NCBI GenBank assembly: GCA_963760795.1 | Contig: CAVXEP010000015.1 | Location: 106,239 to 170,238 of the forward strand | Origin: an uncultured delta proteobacterium | GTDB taxonomy: Bacteria; Desulfobacterota; Binatia; UBA9968 | Reading direction: 5' to 3' | Length of the DNA stretch: 64,000 nt | Part shown: in pieces, positions 10,135 through 64,000 of the stretch | Position numbering within the stretch: the stretch's first letter is position 1 | Layout of the letters: each line of letters opens with the position of its first letter | The notes under the pieces: model-generated | Databases searched by the model: none | What the model was told of the DNA's origin: nothing | The model's input: only the letters and a program-made list of their open reading frames with translations | Made by a program: the position numbers and the translations under genes

Positions 10135-10200
10135 GTTCAAACCGTCCGAATCTTTCGCAACGATTTGAACGCCTTGAAAGTTTTGAACGGCTTGAACGAA
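10135..10200. repeat. 9-mer tandem repeat element (TTGAACGNN)
   Basis: ttcaaaccgtccgaa ... tttgaacgccttgaaagttttgaacggcttgaac; same family at 35609-35661 and 29335-29360. Confidence 0.7.
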
Positions 10201-10239
10201 AACCGTGCAAACGTAAAGCCGTTTGCGAATCCACCAAGG

Positions 10240-10875
10240 CTACGGTTTGTAGATAACGATCCGCAAATCCCTCCCCCGCCCGCCTTCCGGACAAGCGCTG
10301 ATGGCGACCAAGCAGTCCATTTCCGAGCGGAAGTCGACCCTATCGCCCTCCGGCCGCGGCCGGGTCATCGAGTAGCGCATGCTGCCGCTCTTGGCGTTGA
10401 TCACCATGGTTTGAAACACGTTGAGCGGGCTCGGCACATCTTCTTTCGCCACGCCGTGGGGCTTGAGCGCCTTGGCAAGATTCTCCCAGCAGCCATGCTT
10501 GGGCGCGACGACTTTTTTTCTACCCAATTTTTTCCACACGCCGCCGTAAATTTTGAAAATCTCCTCGCCCCATTTCTTGTAGAAAGACGTGCTGCACATG
10601 CCTTTCTCCATATCATGGCTGCCTTTGTAGGTGTCTTTGACGATGGTCTGCATGACGTTGTTGAATTTGGAAATGAGCACGTCGCCAGTCGACACGTAAA
10701 TTTTCCCCTGGTCGACCTTGGTCCGCGCCTGATCGAATCGCTCTTTGACGTTGTGCAGATTGAACACGGTGTAGTCGGCGGTCGAATGCCCCATCACGCT
10801 AATGATCCGGCCTTTCTTGACGGCAAAGGTCGCGCCGCTATTGCTCTTAATGATCGACTCACTGACGATTTTCAC
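10240..10875 (-). CDS. Urea carboxylase-associated family protein (DUF1989)
   Basis: GDVLIS, IVKDT..HD...MC, HGCWENL, PLNVF, EMDCLVAISACP. Confidence 0.85.
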   Translation of the reverse strand: MKIVSESIIKSNSGATFAVKKGRIISVMGHSTADYTVFNLHNVKERFDQARTKVDQGKIYVSTGDVLISKFNNVMQTIVKDTYKGSHDMEKGMCSTSFYKKWGEEIFKIYGGVWKKLGRKKVVAPKHGCWENLAKALKPHGVAKEDVPSPLNVFQTMVINAKSGSMRYSMTRPRPEGDRVDFRSEMDCLVAISACPEGGRGRDLRIVIYKP

Positions 10876-11022
10876 GCTCGCCTCCTCGGTGAAACGAAAA
10901 TAATTTTTTGTAAGTTACCGACTGGTCCCGTCAAAAGCAAGTTAATCCCGCGCCGCGCTGGCAGTTTGATTGACTCTACCGTGGGCTCGTGGATAAATAC
11001 GCGGCAAGTTGAGCGCAAACCC

Positions 11023-11857
11023 ATGAGCGATCCATCGGCAATCAACCCGTCATCCTCATCCGTCATCCAGGTCGAGAACGTTTCCAAAACCTTTCAGACT
11101 TCCGACGAAGACAAAATCGCCGCTCTCGAAAACATCTCACTCGAAATTCATCCCGGCGAGTTTGTCACCGTGGTCGGCCCGAGCGGTTGCGGCAAGTCGA
11201 CTTTGATAAAATTAATCGCCGGCCTGGTCGGTTTGAGCGCCGGGCGGATTATCTGCCAGGGCGAAGAAGTGCGCGGTCTGAATACCAAGGTCGGCTACGT
11301 GCCGCAGGAAAGTAAACTGTTCCCCTGGCTCACCGTGGAAGAAAATGTCGCCTTCGGCCTCGACAGCAAAGGCTATTCGAAAGAAGAGCGCACGCGAGCG
11401 AGTGCGCCATTACATTCAACTGGCCGGGCTGGCGGGTTTTGAGAAACGTTATCCCTCGCAGCTCTCCGGCGGCATGGCCAAGCGCGCCTCCATCGTCCGC
11501 GCGCTCGCCTACGATCCCACGGTGATATTGATGGACGAACCCTTCGGCCCGCTGGACGCCCAGACGCGCATGATCCTGCAAGACGAGCTGTTAAAAATCT
11601 GGGAGCAAAAGCGCCAAACGATCATCTTCGTGACGCACGATCTCGTCGAAGCCGTGGCGCTGGCCGACCGCGTCGTGGTGCTGACGCACCGGCCGGGAAA
11701 AATCCGCGACGTCATCACCGTGGCGATGCGCCGGCCGCGCAATATTTTCGAAATCCACCGGCAAGATGGTTTTGACGAAGCCCATGCCCGGCTATGGAAT
11801 ATTTTCCGCCATGAGCTCAATGTGCGGGATAACGGCGCCAACCCGACAACTGAATAG
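11023..11857 (+). CDS. ABC transporter ATP-binding protein (one frameshift near 11395, probable assembly indel)
   Basis: GPSGCGKST in one frame; LSGGMAKR and ILMDEPF in the next. Confidence 0.9.
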
Positions 11858-27411: not shown

Positions 27412-28603
27412 GTGGCATTAGAAAAACCGATCATCCCAACCTTCTCCATGAAAGAACGCGACCGGCGCTGGTCGCTGCTGCGCGCGGCCATGGCGCAGGC
27501 CAATTTCGACGCGCTCATCGCCTTGCCCCACGAGGGCCATTGGGACCAGTTCGGCTGCGACACGCGTTACATCACCCAAATCGGCGGCACTCAAACTGAA
27601 GTAGGCTGCGTGATGCCCTTCGAAGCCGATGTCACCGCCGTGGTGCGGGGCGAAAACGAAATCGAATGGTGGGGCCTGGCACAAGAATGGGTAACAGACA
27701 TTCGTCCATCGCGCCGTTCCTATGGCGAACCGGTCATCGACCGCTTGAAAGAAGTTCGCGCCGAGCGCGTCGGCGTCGTCGCCCTCTCGGGCATGGTACG
27801 CGCCCCGGAAGGCGTCGTGCCCTGGGGAACCTTTGAAAAGATTCGCACGGCGCTGCCGAACGTCAAGTTCGCCAACGCCACCGATGTCATGCAAGAAGTA
27901 CGCTCGGTGAAAAGCGCCGAAGAAGTCGAGTTTCATTGAGAACGCCGCGGAGATCATCGGCCATGCCAATGAAGTCTTGATCCAACACGCCAAGGTCGGA
28001 GTTGGCGAACATGAGCTGATCGCCGAAATGCTGCGCGAAGTGGTGCGCCGCGGCGGCGAACCGATTACCATGATGCTGTTCGGCACCGGCGGGCCGGAAG
28101 TGCCCTGGGCGCAGCGCGTGTTCACGACAAGAAAACTCAAAGCCGGCGACTTGATCAACACCGAGGTCGAAGGCAAATACGCCGGCTACATCGCCCAGGC
28201 ATTGCAACCGATTTCCCTCGGACCAAAGCCAAAAGAATTGGAGAAAATCTACGACGCCACCAAAGTCATTTTCGACCGCATGTTGAAATTTCTGAAACCC
28301 GGCATCAGCTTCGGTGCGGTCGCGAAGTTTTACCAGGACGAAGTCGCCGCCGCCGGCTACGAACCCGACGGCGCGCTCATGCACGGGCGCGGTTTGGGCG
28401 AAGACGCGCCGATGCTCTGGGGCGCGCGCAAGGATTTTCCCGAAAAAGATCAGCGATTGAAAGAAGGTCATGTGTTCATCCTGAAGCCCGCCTGCAAACA
28501 GGGCTTCATGCGCGACTCCATCCGCGCCGGCGACACCGTGGCCATCGAAGCGAGCGGCGCGCGCCGGCTGGGCAAGCGAGATTTGACATTTGTCGCGGTC
28601 TAA
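27412..28603 (+). CDS. M24 (pita-bread fold) family protein with creatinase-like N-domain and atypical active site (frameshift near 27933)
   Basis: FSMKERDRRW, RSVKSAEEV, GDLINTEVEG..AGYIAQ, MHGRGLG, FILKP, GDTVAI..GARRL. Confidence 0.85.
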
Positions 28604-28639: not shown

Positions 28640-29227
28640 ATGAGCGATGAAAACATCAACCCCGATGCGCCGCTGCATATTCGCGGCTTGAATCATTTAA
28701 CCATTCCCGTCAAAGAGCGCTATCGCGCTGCGCGCTTTTACATCGTCGCCCTGGGCGCGGAGGCGCACCATGAGTCGGCGCCCGATCGTGTCGCCAAGGG
28801 CCTATCACGGTCACTTCAATTTGGCGTACGCATGGCGGCCAATTTCGAGATCGATCTTTTCGAACAAGAGTTTGGCCAACCCGACTGGAACCAGTCTCAT
28901 CCTCATGTGGCTCTCGATACTTCCGCCGACGACCTTGAAAAATGGGCCGAGCATTTCAATAAATGGCGGATTCCGTTCGTCGGCCCAGTGACCCGCTCGG
29001 GAACCAAAGGCGCGGAGATCTATTTCAACGACCCCGACGGCAATCATCTCGAGGTTCATTGCTCCGACGTCCCTGAAGAGAAGCGCAGCAAGTACCACGT
29101 CGGCCCCTACGACAAGAGCCTATGCGTCCACAAAGAAGAATGGCCGCCGAAAGAATTAGCCGATGAAGCGGAGCGATTATTCCAAGCCTCGATCACGCGT
29201 ATGCGCGCGCGTCGAAAACCGCACTGA
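28640..29227 (+). CDS. VOC-family protein
   Basis: IRGLNHLTIPV, HPHVAL, IYFNDPDGNHLE. Confidence 0.9.
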   Translation: MSDENINPDAPLHIRGLNHLTIPVKERYRAARFYIVALGAEAHHESAPDRVAKGLSRSLQFGVRMAANFEIDLFEQEFGQPDWNQSHPHVALDTSADDLEKWAEHFNKWRIPFVGPVTRSGTKGAEIYFNDPDGNHLEVHCSDVPEEKRSKYHVGPYDKSLCVHKEEWPPKELADEAERLFQASITRMRARRKPH

Positions 29228-29370
29228 GACTGGTAGGCAAGTCCGAAAGAATTCTTCACCACGAAGACACGAAGAGCACGAAGTTCGAAAAATTATTGGT
29301 CTCGAATCCTTCGTGTCCTTCGTGACCTTACGTGTTGAACAACTTGAACGACTTAAACGAAAGATTTTCC

Positions 29371-30594
29371 ATGTCCGAGCTGTACCCCTACCCTCGCTTC
29401 TCCCTCGCCGAACGCGACCGCCGCTGGCAAGCAGTGCGGGCGAAAAGATGGCCGAGCAAAACCTCGACGTCATCGTCACGCCGCAGAACACCGGCCATTC
29501 CATGGACTTTCAAGCCAACACCCGCTACTTGACCCATTGCGGCGGCGGCGGCGATGCCGACATCGCCGCGGTGTTTCCCTTGCATGGCGCGGTCACGGCC
29601 ATCGCCACCTCGGCCAATCCGCGCTGGACCACCACGCAGGAGTGGACAACCGATGTTCGCGAAGCGCGCCGCGAGTACGGCAAGATCATCGTCGAGCGCT
29701 TGAAAGAATTAAAGGTCGATCACGGCCGTATCGGCATTACCGGACTGGGCGAGGTCGAGGGCACGCGCACGCCCGAAGGAACGATCCTGCACGGCACCTG
29801 GCAAAGAATCCGCGACGCCTTTCCTAATGCTCAACTCGTCGACGCAACGCCGATCCTGGTCGAGGTGCGCTACATCAAGAGCGCCGAAGAAATCCAAGTG
29901 TTGACGCAATCGATGGCGATAGTCGAAGAGGGGTACAAGGCGGAGATTGAAGCGGCCAGAGCCCGGCGTCCGAGACTGGGATGTTTGGGCCGCGGCGCAG
30001 TACGGCATGATGCGCAACGGCTCGGAGATGCCGGTGCACTGCAACTGGATCTCCGGCAAGAATCCCGTGCGCACCCTCACCCGCCCGAGCATGCGCCTGC
30101 TCGAGCACGGCGACTTGATCATCAATGAACTGGAAGCGAACTGGGTCGGCTACCGCGCCCAAGGCGTGCAGCCGGTTTTTGTCGGCGCGGTCAATCCGGT
30201 GCATCAAGAACTGATCAAAGTCCAGCGCGAAATTTTCAACCGCGTCATGGAACATTTGAAACCCGGCGTCACAGTAAAGGAGCTGGCCGAACTGACGATC
30301 AAGACCGCCGAAAGCGCCGCGCCCAAATCCGGTCCGGCGGCGGGAGCGCGCGGCGATTTGAATATGCATGGCCGCGGCGCCGGCGACGACGGCCCGATTA
30401 TCACCGCCCATGCCAAGAGCCCGCGCCAACTCGGCGTCACGCTGCAAGAAAATATGGTCTACATCTTCAAACCGTCGGCGGTCGCCGCCGACGGCCAATC
30501 CCTCAGCACCTGGGGCGACACCATCGTCGTCACCGCCAGCGGCGGCAAACGCCTCGGCAAACGGCCCCATGATTTAGCGGTGTCGGGTGGTTAG
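29371..30594 (+). CDS. Second atypical M24-family protein (frameshifts near 29445 and 29955)
   Basis: YPRFSLAERDRRW, RYIKSAEEI, LIINELEA..GYRAQ, MHGRGAGDD, YIFKP, WGDTIVV..GGKRL. Confidence 0.85.
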
Positions 30595-30888: not shown

Positions 30889-32406
30889 TCACTTTATTAA
30901 CCAGCTACGCTTCACTTTCAGCAGAATCAAGACCAACGTCGCGATCGTCATCGCCCAGGCGAACCAGTCGCCGAAGCGGACGTAGTAAGTCGTTTCATCC
31001 AAAACATCCACTTCGGTCTGCATGACCGCCGCAGTAAACATCGGCAAGGTTTTGACCAATTCGCCCTTGGCATTGACCAATGAAGTAACACCGGTGTTGG
31101 TGACGCGCAGCAAGCTGCGGCGGGTTTCGATGGCGCGCGATTGCGCCAGACGCAGGTGCTGCCAAGGTCCCACCGATTTGCCGTACCATGCGTCGTTGGT
31201 GAGATTGATCAGAATATTGGCGCGGGTTTCACTGACGAACTTGCGCACCACCTCGGGCAGCAGATCTTCGTAACAGATGAGCGGCGCCACCCGCACCGCG
31301 CGCGGCAAATGAAACACCACCGGACCCGGTCCTGGCGTAAAACCATCGGCCATGGGCAACGCCGGAATCCATGACAACAATTTTGCGAAGGGCAGATACT
31401 CGCCGAAGGCGAGTAATACTTGTTTATGATAGCGGGCGAGAATCCGCCCCTTGACTGTCGGTAAAAAAAGCGGTGTTGAAGGCTTTGCCGTCGGGCTGCC
31501 CGGGATTGCCGCGAAAACTTTTCGCGCCGAAGATGAAGTAGGCGCGGTCCGACTTGAAAGCCGGCATCACGTCCAACGGCAGCGCCTGCACCCTCTCCGG
31601 AATGATCGCCTCGATCGCCGACTCCGGCCAAACCACCAGCGGCACGGCGGGGAGATCGTTGGTGAGCTGGCGGTGCTGGTCGAGGTTTTTTTGCGCCAGC
31701 ACTGGATTCCATTTCATGTCGATGTCGACATTTCCCTGGACCACGCCGACTGATAATTTGCGCGCGCCGGCCATTTCGTCGCCGACACTCTGCAAACGCT
31801 GGAAGCCGTAAACCAGGGCAACGACGATCGCTAAACTAGCGTAAGCCAATGGCAGGATTTTCTTTCTCGGTTCCGCACTGGTGAACAGCGCGTGATAGAG
31901 CGCTGCGCTAAACCACATGACGATGAAACCAGTACCATAGGGGCCGACCAGGTCGGCGGTTTGGATCACCCAGAGAAACGTCACCTGGGAGTTGGCGATA
32001 TACCACGGGAACAAAAGCGGAAAGAGAAATTCGAGGGGCACCCAAAACAACGCCGGGAAAGATCAGCAACGGGCCGAAACCGATGCTACGCACGAGCAGG
32101 GCAAAGAGCGCCATCTGAATCCCCTGCAGCGCTGCATACAGCACGAAGACCACGACGCTGACGGCGAACGGCAAGCCGCCGAAGACACTGATCGTATAGG
32201 TGAGCCAATGGAAGCCGATCAAGTGCGCCACCAGCCCCATCAACCAACCGTACAAGATCGCATGCTCGTAGACTTTCGGCGCGATCGATGGCCCAAAACA
32301 GCGGCACGAAGGCAAACCAAGCCAACGGGAAAAACCACGGTTCGAGAAACGGCGCGGCAAGCAACGCCGCGGCGAGCATCGGCAGCAGGATGTTAGGTAA
32401 TTTCAC
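30889..32406 (-). CDS. lnt: Apolipoprotein N-acyltransferase (about 3 frameshifts, probable assembly indels)
   Basis: LAWFAFVPL, FPW, QTADLVGPYG, VVQGNV, VVWPESA, LAFGEYLP, PLICYE, NLTNDAWYG, RAIETRR..RVTNTG. Confidence 0.93.
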
Positions 32407-37353: not shown

Positions 37354-38221
37354 CTAAACTAGTTTCCAGCTGACAAAGCCCCACCCGGTGGCGACGAAGT
37401 CCGGCATGTAGGCGGTAAAGCTCGCCTTGGCATCGCCCACTGCGCCGATCACCACCATCCAGTTGAGAAACTCGGTATCGCCCGCCTGCAAGAGATCTTG
37501 CACTGAATAGTCAACCAAACTGCGGCCTTTCCCCTGGCGCATGACTTCGAGCAGCTTATGATCGAAACTCTCGTCGATCTCGCCGATGCGCGGCGAGCCG
37601 GGGAAATGGGACAAGCCGCCGGTGGCGAGGATCGCCACGCGCTCTTTTGCGCTATGCGCAACTTCACGGATCAGCTCGCCGACCTGATAACAGCGCCGCG
37701 GCGATGGCGCCGGGTCGACCCAGGTGTTCACGTAGATCGGTAAGATGGGAATCGTTGGTTGCGGCAGGAGAAAATGGAGCGGGACATTCTGCGTATGTTG
37801 CAACTCGACATGCTCGCCATAGGAAAAGTCGATGCCCTTCTCCATGCCGGCGCGGATGATCGCTTTGCCCAGTTCCTGGTGATTTTGATAATCGAACTTA
37901 TGCCGGGTGAACTGCCCCTGCACACGCTCGGCGATGGTGACAAAAAAAGTCGGGATATTGTTCCAAAAAAAATTGACGAATTGATCGTTGGCAACGACGA
38001 TCAGCACATCCGGTTTCGCCTGCTCCAGATCGGCGCGCAGCGTTGAAAATGCCAGCCTCCGCGTCTCGCCGCAGCTTCTTCTGCTGCTCCAGAGTCGGCC
38101 GGTTGGCCGAGGCCTGCGGCGCCATGCTGTAGTGCAAGTCCATAAAATCTTCCCACTCTTGACCGGGCTCGAGAAGAATATTCGGCGCATGGCTCGCCGC
38201 TAAGGCGGAAACTAGGGGCAT
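37354..38221 (-). CDS. LigB-like class III extradiol dioxygenase (frameshift near 38055)
   Basis: AASHAP, PDVLIVVANDQFVNFF, LQHTQNVPL, ATGGLSHFPG, GEIDESFD, GDTEFLNW. Confidence 0.9.
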
Positions 38222-38395
38222 AGCTCAAACTCCTCCGTGAAGTGAGCGAAATCCTATTCCCCGACCTGAGTAATTGCAACTATGGAATGGAACTATGGAA
38301 GGGCGCCATCGCGAAGAGACTATGAGCTGAGACCAGATGCGGGGCTGAGCGGTCGGTTCTTGCTCCGACTAATCGCCAGCCCGATGACCAATCGC

Positions 38396-38542
38396 TTAAA
38401 GCATCCGATAATTGCGCACGGACACCCAGACCGCAACAAAGACAACGACGAGCGAAACAATCGGATGATTCAAAACCCACGCGAGCGACGGTTCAAGAGC
38501 ATGGCGCGAAATCAATTCGAAGTACCGTGATAGAAGATCCAT
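38396..38542 (-). CDS. 48-aa single-TM membrane microprotein (not in the ORF track)
   Basis: AGAGG RBS; MDLLSRYFELISRHALEPSLAWVLNHPIVSLVVVFVAVWVSVRNYRML. Confidence 0.55.
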   Translation of the reverse strand: MDLLSRYFELISRHALEPSLAWVLNHPIVSLVVVFVAVWVSVRNYRML

Positions 38543-38961
38543 ATAATGCCTCTGTTTGGTTGGTTTCTGGTTATTCTACAGCAACCGGCGTTTCCGAATA
38601 CCACAAACTAGCCCGATGCGAATTCCTCAGGTCAATCATTGACGCCGCTGTCATCAATCCGCCAAGGGCACCGAGCTCAATTTTTTGAAGAGACTCCAGG
38701 TGTCGGCCCGGCGAGTGTCCGGCCATGAGAATCTGCCGTATCAACGACATTCACCTTGCTCACGGTTCCCGCATGGAAGTAATTTTTGGCAGTTTTAGAT
38801 CGTTAACGCAGGTTTCCCCCAGTTTTCCGTACAATCTTGGCTCGAAGTTGGACAATTCTGAAAGCTTTTCCGCCGACTTTCATTCCGTCATGGTCAGGGC
38901 AGCCTGCCGTAAATGACGAGATTCGTGAGGATTTAGTCCGTCCGATGACGTTTCGAGAGTC

Positions 38962-38977
38962 TGGCACCATGGTTGCT
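38962..38977 (+). promoter_or_regulatory. Sigma-54 (-24/-12) promoter
   Basis: TGGCAC-CATGG-TTGCT matches TGGCAC-N5-TTGCW; preceded by ~400 nt with no convincing gene (room for enhancer sites). Confidence 0.75.
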
Positions 38978-38988
38978 CTATCGTCGGT

Positions 38989-39165
38989 ATGTCAACGCAA
39001 ACGAAGTATCATCCGATGAAACTTTTACTCGTAACCATGTTTAGGAAAGTTCCCGTGCGCAAGACCAAGCAGCGTGCCACGTTCTGCAAACAATGCGGCA
39101 CAAGAATTTATTCGTTGACGTTTCTCAAGGCCCATCTCGAGTCCCATCAACGGAAGCCACACTAA
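38989..39165 (+). CDS. C2H2 zinc-finger microprotein (58 aa; alternative starts 39016 and 39037; not in the ORF track)
   Basis: MSTQTKYHPMKLLLVTMFRKVPVRKTKQRATFCKQCGTRIYSLTFLKAHLESHQRKPH contains C-x2-C-x3-I-x5-L-x2-H-x3-H. Confidence 0.7.
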   Translation: MSTQTKYHPMKLLLVTMFRKVPVRKTKQRATFCKQCGTRIYSLTFLKAHLESHQRKPH

Positions 39166-39185
39166 ACACAAAATGGAGACAAAAA

Positions 39186-39377
39186 ATGGATTTTTCAGTG
39201 ATCCCGTGGAAAATCTTTCTCGACGCCCTGCAGCACCAGCAACCGAGCACGTTGGAACTTTGGTTGCACCGCTGGCTGTTCACCAACGACGGCGTAATCA
39301 TGGCGACCACTGCCTGGCAAGAAACAGTGAGCCGAAGGAATAGTGGCACAGCCGATCATGAAGCTCTTCAAGCGTAA
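39186..39377 (+). CDS. 63-aa Trp-rich hypothetical microprotein
   Basis: GGAG RBS; MDFSVIPWKIFLDALQHQQPSTLELWLHRWLFTNDG...; 20 nt after the zinc-finger ORF. Confidence 0.55.
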   Translation: MDFSVIPWKIFLDALQHQQPSTLELWLHRWLFTNDGVIMATTAWQETVSRRNSGTADHEALQA

Positions 39378-39594
39378 TTCGATCGACGATAGGCGGCGGC
39401 CGGTTGCGGCGCGCTGTAACCATCGGCTCGCGGTGATCGTCGATCCCAGCGAACGGGAATTGACTGAACTCGAAACCATGCTCGCGCGATGTCCCAACTG
39501 CAGCCAATGGCATCCTGGCCAAGGACCGATCATGGCGGTGTTAACCAGCCGCCAAGACTCTAGCCAGAATAGTTCCAACCATTACATGCTGTGA
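39343..39594 (+). CDS. Small putative Zn-binding protein (C-x-H...C-x2-C)
   Basis: RCNHRL...RCPNCSQWH; overlaps the preceding ORF. Confidence 0.55.
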   Translation: MAQPIMKLFKRNSIDDRRRPVAARCNHRLAVIVDPSERELTELETMLARCPNCSQWHPGQGPIMAVLTSRQDSSQNSSNHYML

Positions 39595-39633
39595 CCAGAC
39601 TAGAGGAATCGCCAACCCTAGGAAAGTGTAACC

Positions 39634-39966
39634 ATGGAAGCTTTAAAGGTTGTCCTCCCCAGCGCCGAAAGCAAACCTTGCGTATGCGGCGCCACAATTT
39701 TTCGCACAGACGTAACTAGGCCCAGACACGAACCGATCTGGCTCTGCTCGCGTCACTGCGGCGCCTACGGGCTCACCTACGAAAGCGCGCTGCGGCGCAA
39801 AGTCAGACTGGATCTGTTGAGTTGGGGTAATCTGCGGCGCCATGCACAGAGGCTGATCGCTGCGGATGAGAAATCCGACGACGAGATTCCTCCGCAGTCC
39901 ATGACTCTGCGCACCGCACCGGTTTGCGCCACATTGGCAAGCGGTAATCGTTTTGAATCGTGGTGA
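39634..39966 (+). CDS. Small putative Zn-ribbon protein (C-x-C...C-x3-C)
   Basis: AGGA RBS; KPCVCGATI...IWLCSRHCGAYG. Confidence 0.6.
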   Translation: MEALKVVLPSAESKPCVCGATIFRTDVTRPRHEPIWLCSRHCGAYGLTYESALRRKVRLDLLSWGNLRRHAQRLIAADEKSDDEIPPQSMTLRTAPVCATLASGNRFESW

Positions 39967-39970
39967 AATA

Positions 39971-39991
39971 GCCGGAGGAAAGATCCTCGGC
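39971..39991 (+). terminator. Hairpin immediately after the microprotein cluster
   Basis: gccggagga-aaga-tcctcggc; no U-tract, so terminator function is uncertain. Confidence 0.35.
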
Positions 39992-40252
39992 CTGAGTCCG
40001 CCCGCTCGCAACATCAATATAAACCGGGAATTCGCGCCGCTCAGTGCCAACTTGATAAATTGATGAGCGCTGACGTCAGTTCAAGCTGAGATTTTTGGCG
40101 TTGGTAAAACCTGATATCAACTAGTGCGAACCGTTAGACTGATAAGAAATCCTGTGTTGTAAACATCCCTCACACTGCGCCGCGCGCGCTGGACTGTGCG
40201 GCGAAATTTGTTGAAAGCAAGAATTGATCGGTTCGGTTTGTTGGCGCTAGAT

Positions 40253-40669
40253 TCAGAAGGCGCTTGGCTGAAGATGAATATCCCCGCTCTGACCGCTGGC
40301 AATACGCAAAATCTTTTGACGCTCAGGACTAATGATGACCGCCGCTTCAGAAACGCCTCCACCACAAAAGCTGCTGATCGAAGTAGCCGCTACAACGTGC
40401 TCACCAAGGGGAACGAAAATCTCGACCTTTTCTGACGGTGCGAGATCGGCAACTGGCACGGCACCGACGAAAACCCGAATGGTGCAAGCCGAACCCATGA
40501 AACCACCGTCACGCTTGATAACGAGGCTCCCCGTGTACTGGGCTTCCGCTAACAAGTGCGGTGCCAGGATTCGCGAGGTCGGCACCTGGGATGCCTGATT
40601 AATGGCGATCGGGGAGGTGGCACACCCCATGAACAACAGAGTTACTAATACGGGAAAGGCACGCATCAT
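40253..40669 (-). CDS. Lipoprotein (DUF2846-like, a type often seen in prophages and islands)
   Basis: Lipobox LFMGC; VIKRDGGFMGSAC...VADLAPSEKVEIFVPLGEH. Confidence 0.7.
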   Translation of the reverse strand: MMRAFPVLVTLLFMGCATSPIAINQASQVPTSRILAPHLLAEAQYTGSLVIKRDGGFMGSACTIRVFVGAVPVADLAPSEKVEIFVPLGEHVVAATSISSFCGGGVSEAAVIISPERQKILRIASGQSGDIHLQPSAF

Positions 40670-41065
40670 GCGTCCTGATAATGTGACTGGTCTCGACGGC
40701 TTTACAGTATTCATTAGTTTTTTCTCCTCGGCATGTCGCAAGCCGCCACATGCACGGTAGATCACTCAGTTGTTAAAGGGTTTCGTGCAACGCAGGTTTA
40801 GCGTTTTAGCCGGCCGTGCTGACGATTCCGGCGCGAAGCGTTTAGTTCCACGATGCTACAGTTCATCACCCTCAAAAAAATACGACACAACCTTTTCTAT
40901 CTAATATGCCATCACACCACGAATCTATCATAGAACGATATCGGTAGAAGTTACGACAACCCTACAATTTTTTTTGCGTCTAACAAAGTAATGGCAATGT
41001 AGACGGCAAAAACGAACTTCCGCGACTAGAGCGGAAGACGTAACGGATTGGATTTTAAGAGGTAA

Positions 41066-41091
41066 AAATGTGGCCAGGGACGGAATCGAAC
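41066..41091. repeat. att site: duplicated 3' end of tRNA-Phe
   Basis: aaatgtggccagggacggaatcgaac is identical to 42931-42956; imperfect homology extends to ttaagaggt on the left and gacacgg on the right. Confidence 0.93.
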
Positions 41092-41146
41092 AATGGACAC
41101 GGGGCCTAAAATTAGTATCAAGATATGGATCGACTGAAAATAGCCG

Positions 41147-41180
41147 TTGCTAACTTATAGGCTGAAATGTACACTTCAGC
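41147..41180 (+). promoter_or_regulatory. Sigma-70 promoter overlapped by a TGTACA palindromic operator
   Basis: TTGCTA(41147)-N17-TACACT(41170); palindrome GCTGAA-a-TGTACA-c-TTCAGC at 41161-41180. Confidence 0.8.
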
Positions 41181-41200
41181 CATCAAGGGGGTCAACGGCT

Positions 41201-41455
41201 ATGGCACAGGTAAACACGGTAAATGCGCGGGCACAGTTTTCAGATATCATTAATCGGGCGGCTTTCGGCAAAGAGCGGGTCACGCTTACCCGCAGGGGCA
41301 AAGAGATCGTCGCCGTGGTGCCGATCGAGGATGTGAAGTTGCTGGAAGCATTGGAAGACAAAATCGATCTTGAAGAGGCGCGGGCTGCGCTGGCGGAGTC
41401 CAAGAAGAAAGGCACCGTGTCTTGGGACAAGATCAAGAAAGAGCTGGGCATATAG
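41201..41455 (+). CDS. Phd/YefM-family antitoxin
   Basis: VNTVNARAQFSDIINRAAFGKERVTLTRRGKEIVAVVPIED. Confidence 0.93.
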   Translation: MAQVNTVNARAQFSDIINRAAFGKERVTLTRRGKEIVAVVPIEDVKLLEALEDKIDLEEARAALAESKKKGTVSWDKIKKELGI

Positions 41456-41725
41456 TTGGCTTACCGGATTGAGTTTACACCCAAAGCCCAGCGCGATTTT
41501 AAGGCCCTCGATGGCTCGATACGCGGCCGGATTGCGCGGCGAATTGACTCGTTGGCGGAGAACCCGTTTCCATCGGGTATCAAGAAGCTTGAAGGCGAAG
41601 ATGAGCTTTACCGCTTGCGCGTGGGCGACTATCGGGTGCTCTATCAAGTGCAAGGCAAAGTGTTGTTGGTTTTGATTGTGGGCATGGGTCATAGACGAGA
41701 CATTTACCGGCGGATCGGGGGATAG
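41456..41725 (+). CDS. RelE/ParE-family toxin (RelE-like)
   Basis: YRIEFTPKAQRDFKAL, NPFPSGIKKLEG, YRLRVGDYRVLY, GHRRDIYR. Confidence 0.94.
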   Translation: MAYRIEFTPKAQRDFKALDGSIRGRIARRIDSLAENPFPSGIKKLEGEDELYRLRVGDYRVLYQVQGKVLLVLIVGMGHRRDIYRRIGG

Positions 41726-41727
41726 TC

Positions 41728-42997
41728 ATGGCAAAAGGCATCTACGAGCGCAAAGGTTTGAACGGCGACGTTACCTACTACATCCGTTACCAGGTCGACG
41801 GCACGGACATCAAAGAGCGCGTCGGCCGGAAGTCGCGGGGGTTCACTCGCGAGATGGCTAAGGATGCTTTGAGAGCGCGGCTCGGTGAGATCACCCAAGG
41901 TCGGTTCAATCTGGAGAAAACCCGTAAGCCTATCCCATTCTCAAAACTGGCGGAACGTTACCGCGAATACGGCGCCAGCACCAAGCGCGCATGGGACGAC
42001 GAAAAGCATATTACCGAACGGTTCGCGGACCTATTCGGGGAGACACCGTTGGCGTTGATCACAACTTGGCAGATCGAGAAGTGGAAGGGTGAGCGCGGCA
42101 AGGAGATCAAGCCGGGATCGGTGAACCGCCAGCTAACCGTCATCAAGCATATGTTCAAAATGGCCATCGAATGGGGCATGACGTTGACCAATCCGGCGAG
42201 CGCTGTGAAACGCTTACCTGTGAACGATCAAAGAACCCGTTTCTTAACCGGCGATGAAATCCAGGCAATTCTCAAAACTTGTGAAAGTCAGATCACTTCG
42301 CCGTGGTTGCTCCCCTCGTGACGCTGGCGCTCAATACCGGCATGCACCAGGGCGAGCTTTTGAATCTGAAATGGGAAGCTGTGAATCTCGCGCAGGGACT
42401 GATAACCGTGCGGCAATCGAAAACCCTTCGGCTAAAAACCATCGCAATCAATGCGCCGGCCAAAGATGCGCTAGATTGGCTTGGTGAAAACCGGTATGGA
42501 GAATATCTCTTCATGTGGCCGTGGGGCGATAAGATCGGCAAGGTCACTGTTTACGATGCTTTCAAAAAGCCTGTAGCGCGGCAGAGATCACCGATTTTCG
42601 CTTTCACGATCTGCGCCATACCTTTGCGTCTAATCTAGTCATGGCAGGCGTGGATTTGGTCACTGTGAAGGAACTCATGGGCCATGTCGGCATCGCTATG
42701 ACCGTGCGTTACTCTCACCTGGTGCCAGAGCACAAAGCGCAGGCCGTGACCAAATTGAGCGAACGGTTCGACGGATTCAAAACTGAATCGGCGAATCAAA
42801 GCGCAATCGTTTCACCGGAACTGAAAGAGGCGATCAATGCAGTTTTGCCGCTGAACTTGGAACAAGACCGGAACGTTTTCTTAATGCGGATGGGACGTGG
42901 ATTGAAAATCGTTAGTGATGTTAAGAGGTTAAATGTGGCCAGGGACGGAATCGAACCGCCGACACGGAGATTTTCAGTCTCCTGCTCTACCGACTGA
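41728..42997 (+). CDS. Tyrosine recombinase/integrase (2 frameshifts; first catalytic Arg reads His)
   Basis: Arm-binding-like N-terminus, SVNRQL, RTRFLT, LALNTGMHQGELL, FHDLRHTFAS, ELMGH..MTVRYSH; the last frame stays open into the tRNA antisense strand. Confidence 0.88.
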
Positions 42998-43008
42998 GCT
43001 ACCTGGCC
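42936..43008 (-). tRNA. trnF: tRNA-Phe(GAA), CCA not encoded
   Basis: GGCCAGGTAGCTCAGTCGGTAGAGCAGGAGACTGAAAATCTCCGTGTCGGCGGTTCGATTCCGTCCCTGGCCA, 73-nt cloverleaf. Confidence 0.98.
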
Positions 43009-43061
43009 AAAAGAAGTGAACCTGGAATATTGCTTAAAAGTTTCGGCGAGTCAAGTTTGAC

Positions 43062-44024
43062 CTAGGCTTTGGCGAGCTTTTCGACCTGGCGTTCGACGAA
43101 ATCGATGACTTGGCTTTCGAGGCGCACGCCGTCTAAAGAATTAATTTCTTGGATGCCCGTCGGACTGGTCACGTTAACCTCGGTGAGAAAGTTGCCGATC
43201 ACGTCCAGACCGACGAAGTAAAGCCCATCCGCGCGCAGAAGCGGCGCCAGCGCCGCGCAAATCTCCCGGTCGCGCTCAGTCACTTCGCTCTTCACGCACT
43301 GGCCGCCGACATGAATGTTGCCGCGGGTTTCCGACTCCAGCGGCACGCGTAAGACCGCGCCGAGCGGCTCGCCGTTGAGAACGATGATTCGTTTGTCGCC
43401 CTGGCGGATCTCGGGCAGGTAGCGTTGCCCCATCACCAGCCGCCGGCCGTTGTCGGTGGCCGCTTCGAGAATCGAATTGGTGTTGCGGTCCTGGCCGTTT
43501 AAGTAAAACACACCGCTGCCGCCGCAGCCGTCGAGCGGCTTGACGATCAGCTCGCCGCCCAGTTCATCCATGAACGCGCGCAGCCGCTCCATATTGCTGC
43601 TCACCAGCGTCTGCGGGATCTGTTCCGGAAAGCGCATGGCATAAAGTTTTTCGTTGGCCTCGCGCAGCCCCTTGGGATTGTTCATGAGAAAACATTTGCT
43701 CGGGTCGATCAAACTGAGCAGATGAGTGGCGAAGAAAAATTTCATGTCGAAGGGCGGATCTTTGCGCATCCACACCGTGTCGAAGTCCGCCAGCGATCCG
43801 GTGGCAAATTCACCAAGTTGGGTGTGAGGGGTGGCACGGGCCAGTTGCAGCCGGCGATAGCGGCCATGGGTGGCGCCGCCGCGCACGAACAGATCGTCGA
43901 CTTCCATGAAATAAAGTTCATGGCCGCGCCGCTGGGCTTCGAGCATCAGGACGAAGGTGGTGTCCTTGTCGATGTTGATGTTTTCGACGGGGTCCATCAC
44001 GACCCCGATTCGGAGTTTCCTCAT
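43062..44024 (-). CDS. gshB: Glutathione synthetase
   Basis: VMDP..KDTT, MRKDPPFD, EANEKL, KPLDG.GG, RGNIHVGG, FVGLDVIG..LTEVNVTSPTG. Confidence 0.96.
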   Translation of the reverse strand: MRKLRIGVVMDPVENINIDKDTTFVLMLEAQRRGHELYFMEVDDLFVRGGATHGRYRRLQLARATPHTQLGEFATGSLADFDTVWMRKDPPFDMKFFFATHLLSLIDPSKCFLMNNPKGLREANEKLYAMRFPEQIPQTLVSSNMERLRAFMDELGGELIVKPLDGCGGSGVFYLNGQDRNTNSILEAATDNGRRLVMGQRYLPEIRQGDKRIIVLNGEPLGAVLRVPLESETRGNIHVGGQCVKSEVTERDREICAALAPLLRADGLYFVGLDVIGNFLTEVNVTSPTGIQEINSLDGVRLESQVIDFVERQVEKLAKA

Positions 44025-44793: not shown

Positions 44794-45535
44794 CTAAGTC
44801 AAATCGCCCCAAAGGAACTGCACCAAGGACAAAGCAGTCACCGCGGCGGTCTCAGCGCGCAAAATGCGCCGGCCTAAATGGACGCTGTGGAAACCCCGTG
44901 CGTTCGCCAATTGCACTTCAGCGCTGCTCAAGCCGCCCTCGGCACCGATGGCGACCAAGATCGCCGTCGCGTTAGCATGGGCCTCATGAATCTGGCGCAG
45001 CGATTGCACCGTCTCCTTTCTCCCAGAAAACAACTTGAGCTGGCCGCAGCCAGCACCCTCGACCATCTGCGTCGAATTCGCACAGCGGCATAATCTCCGG
45101 CACCTGGGTCCGGCCGCATTGTTTCGCCGCGCTCAGCGCGATCTTCTGCCAGCGCTCGGTGCGATTGGCGATTTTCTTGTCGTCGAGCTTGGGCACGGTA
45201 AAACTTGAGGTAAACGGCATGATCGAAGCCACGCCAAGCTCCGTCGCCTTCTCGACGACAAAGTCCATCTTTTCGCCCTTGGTTAACCCCAGCGCCAAAG
45301 TCAGCGCCAGCGGCGATTCTCGACCGGCTTCATAGGAGCGGCGAATTTCGAGCTCACCCCGATCGGCGTGGAGGCTGCGAATCACCGCTTCATGTTCCCA
45401 GCCGGTGTCATCGAACAGCGTCACGGGATCGCCCACGGTCAAGCGCAGCACGCGGCGCAGATGCTCCAGTTCCTGACCGGCGATGGTCGCGCTGGTCGCT
45501 TGGATATTCTCTTTGCGGACGAAGAATCGAGCCAT
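44794..45535 (-). CDS. rsmE: 16S rRNA m3U1498 methyltransferase (frameshift near 45060)
   Basis: HLRRVLRL, EKATELGV, SAAKQCGR, IGAEGG, LGRRILRAETA. Confidence 0.94.

Positions 45536-58348: not shown

Positions 58349-64000
<5,652 letters not shown>

Follow-up and report, generated by a model that had tools for sequence, protein, structure and literature searches.

Why should an insertion in a tRNA gene consist of little more than a toxin, its antitoxin and an integrase, and can such an insertion still move? The locus that raises these questions lies in a 64,000-nucleotide (nt) stretch of DNA, the window of this study, from an uncultured delta proteobacterium (assembly GCA_963760795.1, contig CAVXEP010000015.1, positions 106,239 to 170,238). 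Here, two copies of the 3' end of a tRNA-Phe gene enclose a toxin-antitoxin (TA) pair and, directly behind it, an integrase gene. We conclude, with a probability that we put at roughly one half, that this is a compact cryptic integrated islet, comprising a TA pair and a lambda-type integrase, that is probably fixed in place. The copy is most likely fixed because the first catalytic arginine of its integrase (Arg-I) is replaced by histidine, because no excisionase is present, and because the integrase frame is broken twice in this assembly. A stranded selfish passenger is more likely than a working new kind of mobile element. The features concerned, in window coordinates and with lengths in amino acid residues (aa), are the following.

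41017..41037, minus strand: terminator-like hairpin and, behind it, a T-run, some 28 nt past the displaced tRNA 3' end
41066..41091, no strand: attR-side direct repeat, a copy of tRNA-Phe from the T-loop to the 3' end plus 5 nt, with imperfect similarity over about 41051-41102
41092..41146, plus strand: short non-coding stretch, the presumed P' arm of the former attP, holding the motif GACTGAAAAT
41147..41175, plus strand: proposed promoter TTGCTA-N17-TACACT, a weak match
41160..41181, no strand: 22-bp palindrome with a TGTACA core, overlapping the -10 box; candidate antitoxin operator
41201..41455, plus strand: Phd/YefM-family antitoxin, 84 aa (PF02604, TIGR01552)
41456..41725, plus strand: RelE/ParE-superfamily toxin, 89 aa (PF05016, TIGR02385)
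41728..42321, plus strand: integrase piece 1, arm-binding and core-binding domains, its frame ending at the C-run 42312-42315
42303..42638, plus strand: integrase piece 2, first half of the catalytic domain, including the Arg-I position, its frame lost near 42569
about 42570..42997, plus strand: integrase piece 3, with the HDLRH, GH and RYSH motifs and a low-confidence tail that crosses the repeat and enters tRNA antisense sequence
42931..42956, no strand: attL-side direct repeat, inside both the tRNA-Phe 3' end and the integrase frame
42935..43008, minus strand: intact tRNA-Phe(GAA), the integration target (ARAGORN, Rfam)

The 1,865 bp between the repeats, about 96% of which are coding, are a true site-specific insertion at the 3' end of tRNA-Phe. 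The tRNA gene scores 71.5 bits in Rfam and is the sole match in an Rfam scan of positions 37500-43500. Its last 21 nt, together with 5 nt past the gene, make up the perfect 26-nt repeat (41066-41091 = 42931-42956) described by the first-pass annotation of this DNA, which is far beyond chance. Similarity between the two copies reaches 37 nt at 89% identity, or about 52 nt if one indel is allowed, some 14 nt of these lying past the tRNA end. The 21-nt core has exactly two matches in the 64 kb at up to three mismatches, compared with none in 100 shuffles, and a search of the window for a third att-like copy, the sign of a tandem array, found none. Direct repeats of a tRNA 3' end that flank the insert, with an integrase adjoining the tRNA, are the marks of an integrative element that targets a tRNA gene. 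The hairpin at 41017-41037 is probably the native tRNA-Phe terminator and, since it sits just left of the first repeat, the left flank looks like host DNA. Within the insert there is no terminator-like site after tRNA-Phe. The insertion has left its probable terminator hairpin 1.9 kb downstream, so transcription of the tRNA may run antisense through the integrase gene and the TA pair. The GACTGAAAAT motif of the 41092-41146 stretch occurs again near 42900, which is a lead only.

As the first-pass annotation stated, the insert holds only the TA pair and the integrase, with no replication, transfer or excisionase gene among its three genes. None of the three matched a relaxase or oriT, type IV secretion system, replication or packaging family. 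The antitoxin scores 43.3 bits against PF02604 (cut-off 29.8) and 40.2 bits against TIGR01552 (cut-off 20.8), and the toxin 51.5 bits against PF05016 (cut-off 23); the toxin also matches the PHROG family 'RelE-like toxin'. Its earlier description as RelE-like is right at the level of the RelE/ParE superfamily, but for RelE itself there is only a marginal RelE/StbE match (TIGR02385, 29.4 bits, cut-off 27.9). Two small adjacent genes, antitoxin first and both above curated cut-offs, have the form of a type II TA locus. The start codon of the toxin, TTG, adjoins the stop codon of the antitoxin, and the database entries of several toxin homologues begin with L, as would fit a start other than ATG. 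The integrase ATG (41728) follows the toxin stop after 2 nt, with a Shine-Dalgarno-like GGGGGA ahead of it within the last codons of the toxin. Both spacings, of 0 and 2 nt, follow from the sequence itself and agree with those first reported.

The antitoxin protein is intact and its identical sequence is listed on 21 contigs. Protein searches returned 627 matches for the antitoxin, the top 120 all at 89% identity or more, and 368 for the toxin, the top 120 spanning 69% to 97%. The TA pair occurs far more widely than the integrase, for which a search with the N-terminal piece gave 143 relatives. Judged on the top 120 matches of each, the antitoxin family (P0241-P0360) is more conserved than the toxin family (P0121-P0240); for TA pairs the reverse pattern, with the antitoxin the less conserved partner, is the usual one.

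Upstream of the antitoxin, the palindrome GGCTGAA-A-TGTACA-C-TTCAGCC spans 22 bp over the proposed -10 box and pairs at 10 of its 11 positions. Six such palindromes occur in the 64 kb, compared with 0.6 in shuffles, and TGTACA itself occurs three times in the window. Palindromes with this core are the documented operator of YefM-YoeB (PMC1802561). The same core had also been ascribed to P1 Phd, which the available part of PMC4803016 leaves unconfirmed. Judged from its sequence, the palindrome at 41160-41181 is a credible candidate for a Phd/YefM-type operator. The promoter proposed with it is weak: TTGCTA-N17-TACACT agrees with the consensus at 8 of 12 positions and falls below the threshold of a plus-strand scan of 40700-43100, which returned no promoter-like site. 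Nor did scanning find a plus-strand promoter-like or terminator-like site between the three genes. Because the gene spacing leaves no space for a terminator or an intergenic promoter, it is plausible that the integrase gene shares one transcript with the TA pair. The TA promoter is only 55 bp from the intact att core. Motifs of the form GAYTGAAAAT or GGATT[CG]AAAA at 41132-41141, 42773-42782 and 42899-42909, in both presumed att arms, resemble the palindrome half-site GGCTGAAAT (41160-41168); they are about as frequent as expected by chance and are likewise a lead only, to arm-type sites. In a search for arm-site motifs, several 9-mers recur with at most one mismatch, also at about chance frequency.

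What kind of integrase is this, and is it functional? An AlphaFold model built on the family alignment (mean predicted local distance difference test score, pLDDT, 76.6) has a three-stranded sheet and a helix at residues 4-57, followed by a core-binding domain made of helices and then the catalytic domain. In the PDB, the model matches full-length lambda integrase chains best; in a sequence comparison, the nearest chains of solved structure are 5c6k and HP1 integrase. As modelled, the protein is a lambda-type, heterobivalent, arm-binding tyrosine integrase, a class assigned because the model has an N-domain and because its best structural matches are lambda integrase chains. No HTH_17/Xis gene is found among the three genes between the repeats, so that the N-domain of a lambda-type module is here without its Xis or recombination directionality factor. 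Lambda-type integrases normally need such a directionality factor, or excisionase, in order to excise. Raising the level of such an integrase where there is no directionality factor favours integration, so that more integrase does not imply more excision.

The first-pass annotation treated the integrase as one gene. In this assembly it occupies three reading frames, separated by two 1-base gaps. Intact relatives of 416-424 aa exist (P0001, 100% identical over the N-terminal piece; P0002, 99%; P0003, 92%), and compared with these the window copy lacks one base in the C-run (42312-42315) and one beside the A-run (near 42569). The Arg-I box reads NTGMHQGE, Arg-I being His (CAC, 42345-42347). In a family alignment of 75 sequences the Arg-I column is Arg in 74, the sole exception being P0002, which has His and is near-identical to the window copy; the Lys, Arg-II, both His positions and the Tyr are present in all 75. 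P0001, almost identical to the window integrase, keeps Arg-I. The catalytic set Arg-Lys-His-Arg-His/Trp-Tyr is not conserved in full in the window, where Arg-I is lost and the other five are present. Substitutions of Arg-I abolish cleavage in lambda Int and Cre, and the window integrase probably cannot cleave. Because the assembly looks rich in indel errors, we do not take the frameshifts to prove that the gene is a pseudogene; the change of Arg-I to His is harder to dismiss as an artefact than are the frame breaks.

These results divide the proposal that the integrase is wired into an autoregulated TA operon. One transcript is plausible from the gene spacing, as said above, but excision governed by the TA pair is unsupported. 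The specific claim, that excision is tied to the toxin:antitoxin ratio, runs against the His at Arg-I, the broken frames and the nature of the enzyme, a lambda-like integrase without a directionality factor.

The integrase frame of about 423 codons goes on beyond the catalytic Tyr for about 94 codons, through the repeat, to a stop in the antisense of the tRNA D-loop, and residues 357-423 are of low confidence in the model. Most of the listed full-length relatives (P0001-P0117) likewise end in a tail resembling the antisense of the 3' end of a target tRNA. There are three main tail types, ARDGIEPPTRGFSVLCSTD, EAASGFEPLHRGFADLSLNHLGTPP and WWRRGESNPRPKVF, with a few relatives having other tails. 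Because most of the relatives' tails look like tRNA antisense, the att core lies within the 3' end of the integrase gene throughout the family. The tails of P0046 and P0049 diverge right after the core, and these sequences might represent attP-type junctions. In the circle predicted for the window element, the integrase frame would stop at the TAA 41150-41152, inside the -35 box. A conserved NRN[IV]FLVRxGRGL motif, of pLDDT below 50, precedes the core by about 20 codons and might reflect conserved arm-site DNA rather than protein function. The N-terminal extensions of P0009, P0016 and P0071 are unlike the window's sequence upstream in the integrase frame, and are uninformative.

How typical is this gene arrangement? 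A survey of genomic context covered 80 listed loci at which the integrase has 30-47% identity to that of the window, that is, its distant relatives. A tRNA lies within -150 to +400 nt of the end of the integrase open reading frame (ORF) at 54 of the 80, convergent with it at 33, as in the window, and co-directional at 21; the remaining 26 have none. Plus-strand ORFs of at least 45 aa within 900 nt upstream of the integrase were scanned at 65 loci, the other 15 having too little upstream sequence. An HTH_17 (Xis/AlpA-like) gene was found at 30 of these 65, with Rep_trans, Phage_CRI, Prim-Pol or helicase genes beyond it, while PhdYeFM or ParE_toxin was found upstream of the integrase at none (0 of 132 ORFs), and tblastn of the TA proteins against the 80 loci gave no close homologue. 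Because the distant loci carry Xis-like and Rep genes, the wider family is best described as one of small Rep-Xis-Int integrative replicons, and the TA pair here occupies the position that xis has in that family. Nothing in these comparisons points to a TA pair plus integrase as the usual design of the family. In tblastn of P0002 against plasmids and phages, identities were at most 32%.

The test for repeats covered 43 of the 54 tRNA-adjacent loci, the other 11 being left out for lack of upstream sequence. Repeats of at least 19 nt bound islands of 4.3-10.4 kb at eight of the 43, and none smaller than 4 kb was found. Four of the smaller repeat-bounded segments were scanned: two carry rolling-circle Rep genes (L047, 4.4 kb, and L079, 6.6 kb), one gave no family match (L066, 5.2 kb), and one holds a carbamoyltransferase, its 23-nt repeat being perhaps a chance match (L006). 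The first-pass annotation had itself named larger islands among relatives as the sign that this locus is a remnant; such islands, two of them with rolling-circle Rep genes, are found among the distant relatives, and the observation extends to those relatives only. At two loci, L002 and L010, the tRNA is co-directional and just downstream of the integrase gene, and its repeat is 3.0 kb and 4.8 kb further downstream, respectively; because of this position of the repeat, the integrase there appears to be outside the repeat-bounded segment.

For the close family, co-occurrence was judged by a proxy, namely whether proteins are on contigs of equal size in nt, an approach validated by the many antitoxin-toxin pairs that it links; because an entry found on more than one contig is given with its longest alone, other links may escape it. 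One size, 3,144 nt, is common to an antitoxin (P0295, 93% identity), a toxin (P0155, 82%) and an integrase of the second tail type (P0039, 70%), and this is probably a second contig with a TA pair and an integrase, at a different tRNA tail. It is the single triple match, where one pairwise match in size is expected by chance. About 21 integrases of the family are on contigs of 2.2-3.8 kb, only one of which shares its size with a listed TA protein, and of the 31 toxin-bearing contigs of at least 3 kb that are listed, again only one shares its size with an integrase contig.

In the interpretation that we favour, a fixed islet, the antitoxin-toxin complex would repress the promoter at the palindrome, and the integrase, translated from the same mRNA as the TA pair, would be kept low. 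The TA pair would make loss of the islet costly, and the islet would be held both by this addiction and by a crippled integrase that lacks an excisionase. The arrangement of TA pair and integrase may have evolved and not been left by random deletion, as the 2-nt junction and the promoter 55 bp from an intact att core argue; the distant relatives nevertheless argue that Rep and Xis were once the norm. Several observations count against this interpretation. At least four other genes of the window are split likewise, so the breaks in the integrase may be assembly errors, and the His codon adjoins a CCAGG motif, so that a systematic base-calling error, or else a His that is tolerated, is possible. 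Co-transcription and repression are inferred, and a promoter match of this quality is what chance would give. There are also integrases that need no helper protein for excision. The 3,144-nt contig, finally, hints that the combination of TA pair and integrase recurs and may be a working unit in other genomes.

Could the islet instead be what remains of something larger? A Rep-Xis-Int element reduced by deletion to a TA cargo pair and an integrase is a possible origin, perhaps half as probable as a fixed islet. The distant relatives favour it, with HTH_17 upstream of the integrase at 30 of 65 loci, Rep_trans, Phage_CRI, Prim-Pol or helicase genes beyond, and repeat-bounded islands that are all of 4.3-10.4 kb (eight of 43 loci, none below 4 kb), as does the decay already evident in the integrase. 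Random deletion, however, would be unlikely to leave a toxin-integrase junction of 2 nt complete with a ribosome-binding site, or a TA promoter so close to an intact att core, and the relatives that argue for it are distant ones, at 30-47% identity. Appreciably less likely again is an active, self-contained minimal element in which the toxin:antitoxin ratio sets the integrase level through the shared operator, and hence excision. Its compactness (about 96% of 1,865 bp coding, gaps of 0 and 2 nt), the GGGGGA in the last codons of the toxin, the stop of the circularised integrase frame at the TAA inside the -35 box, the one probable further contig at another tRNA target (P0039, P0155, P0295) and the retention of Arg-I in the near-identical P0001 are all as such an element would have them. 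This copy, however, has His at Arg-I and broken frames, its lambda-like integrase is without a directionality factor, there is no replication or transfer function among the three genes, and only one of the roughly 21 family integrases on contigs of 2.2-3.8 kb shares its size with a TA contig, although more such links may be hidden.

A shade more doubtful still is an incidental adjacency, in which a highly mobile TA cassette landed by a solitary integrase and the two modules are functionally independent, any expression of the integrase coming from a promoter within relE or from read-through. The far greater abundance of the TA family (627 antitoxin and 368 toxin matches, compared with 143 for the integrase) would fit this, as would the match in size to an integrase contig of only one of the 31 toxin-bearing contigs of 3 kb or more. 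Against it, the three genes look like one unit, being 0 and 2 nt apart with no plus-strand promoter-like site inside the operon, and a single pair of att repeats bounds the whole segment. The most elaborate interpretation would see here a family of autonomous 'addiction-plus-integrase' elements of about 1.9 kb, with TA pair and integrase in one autoregulated operon whose operator would be part of the P' arm of attP. Circularisation would bring the integrase frame up to the TA promoter, where it would end; the antitoxin-toxin complex would be both a transcriptional governor and an Xis-like architectural factor at att, its half-site GGCTGAAAT resembling the GAYTGAAAAT motifs in both arms; and relatives would have moved to other tRNA genes as targets without losing the TA pair. 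We consider this improbable.

Returning to the fixed islet, how does it compare with known systems? In its workings the locus resembles a cryptic integrated element with addiction cargo. Of such cryptic elements, the smallest that we have found in print is NitUzo-E2 of Thaumarchaeota, of 2.6 kb and four genes (PMC6563490). The islet shares with cryptic elements of this kind a tyrosine integrase, short att repeats and a tRNA-type target and very few genes, with none recognisable for replication or transfer. It differs from NitUzo-E2 in being smaller (1.87 kb) and bacterial, and in having as its sole cargo a TA pair in the same transcription unit as the integrase. With TA operons of the YefM-YoeB and Phd families (PMC1802561, PMC4803016) it shares the order of antitoxin then toxin, a Phd/YefM N-domain paired with a toxin of the RelE/ParE fold, and a palindrome with a TGTACA core over the promoter. 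In contrast to YefM-YoeB, where paired L and S repeats are 12 bp apart, there is one long palindrome, and there is a third gene, the integrase, 2 nt after the toxin.

TA pairs associated with recombination genes are also known elsewhere. In Tn3-family transposons they are embedded in the transposition module, with a proposed role in regulating or stabilising movement (PMC7157771), and there too the TA pair adjoins a site-specific recombination gene and its DNA site. The Tn3 neighbours, however, are a resolvase, a res site and a transposase, whereas the islet has a lambda-type integrase, a tRNA att site and no transposase. Like the lambda, HP1 and P2-type integrases (PDB 1z1b, 1aih, 5c6k), that of the islet has three domains, an arm-binding N-domain, a target at a tRNA 3' end and its gene beside att; unlike those modules it has no Xis or Rep partners, its ORF extends over the att core to about 94 codons beyond the Tyr, and its Arg-I is His. 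TA pairs as maintenance modules of integrative elements have been reviewed (PMC5704250), and a weak association between TA pairs and integrases in chromosomes has been described (PMC13617665). In mosAT of SXT (PMC2654960) and in the TA cassettes of chromosomal integrons (PMC13108822), as is proposed here, the TA pair stabilises an integrated element or limits its loss by recombination, but those are separate operons on large elements, whereas the TA pair of the islet is its only cargo and is upstream of the integrase gene. A full-text search of a limited literature collection found no description of a tRNA element made solely of a TA pair and an integrase.

If units of TA pair and integrase this small truly move, few site-specific integrative elements would be smaller, and they would provide a clear instance of an addiction module with its own means of entry into the chromosome; the long-debated link between TA regulation and the stability of mobile elements would then be testable with three genes. 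At present the locus is mainly a well-preserved example of how a TA pair can keep in a tRNA gene an islet whose integrase is dead or dying, and its interest is moderate to low unless mobility is shown.

The split genes referred to above are those for an ABC ATPase (10165-11854), a Xaa-Pro peptidase (29163-30591), Lnt (30892-32360, in at least three pieces) and RsmE (44797-45535), each divided across overlapping ORFs in different frames, with consecutive parts of one Pfam profile in the successive pieces; lnt and rsmE are housekeeping genes. Possible further cases are at 27412-28600 and 62011-62918. The simplest reading of these genes is that the assembly is rich in indel errors; frame breaks in it cannot be read as pseudogenes, and apparent pseudogenes in the window are not to be trusted. 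Outside the att repeats, the roughly 2 kb from 38200 to 40250 hold no ORF longer than 135 aa. None of the ORFs tried in this region passed a Pfam cut-off, one of 58 aa giving two weak zinc-finger matches, and the guanine-plus-cytosine content is 0.47-0.51, compared with 0.55-0.62 in the surrounding DNA.

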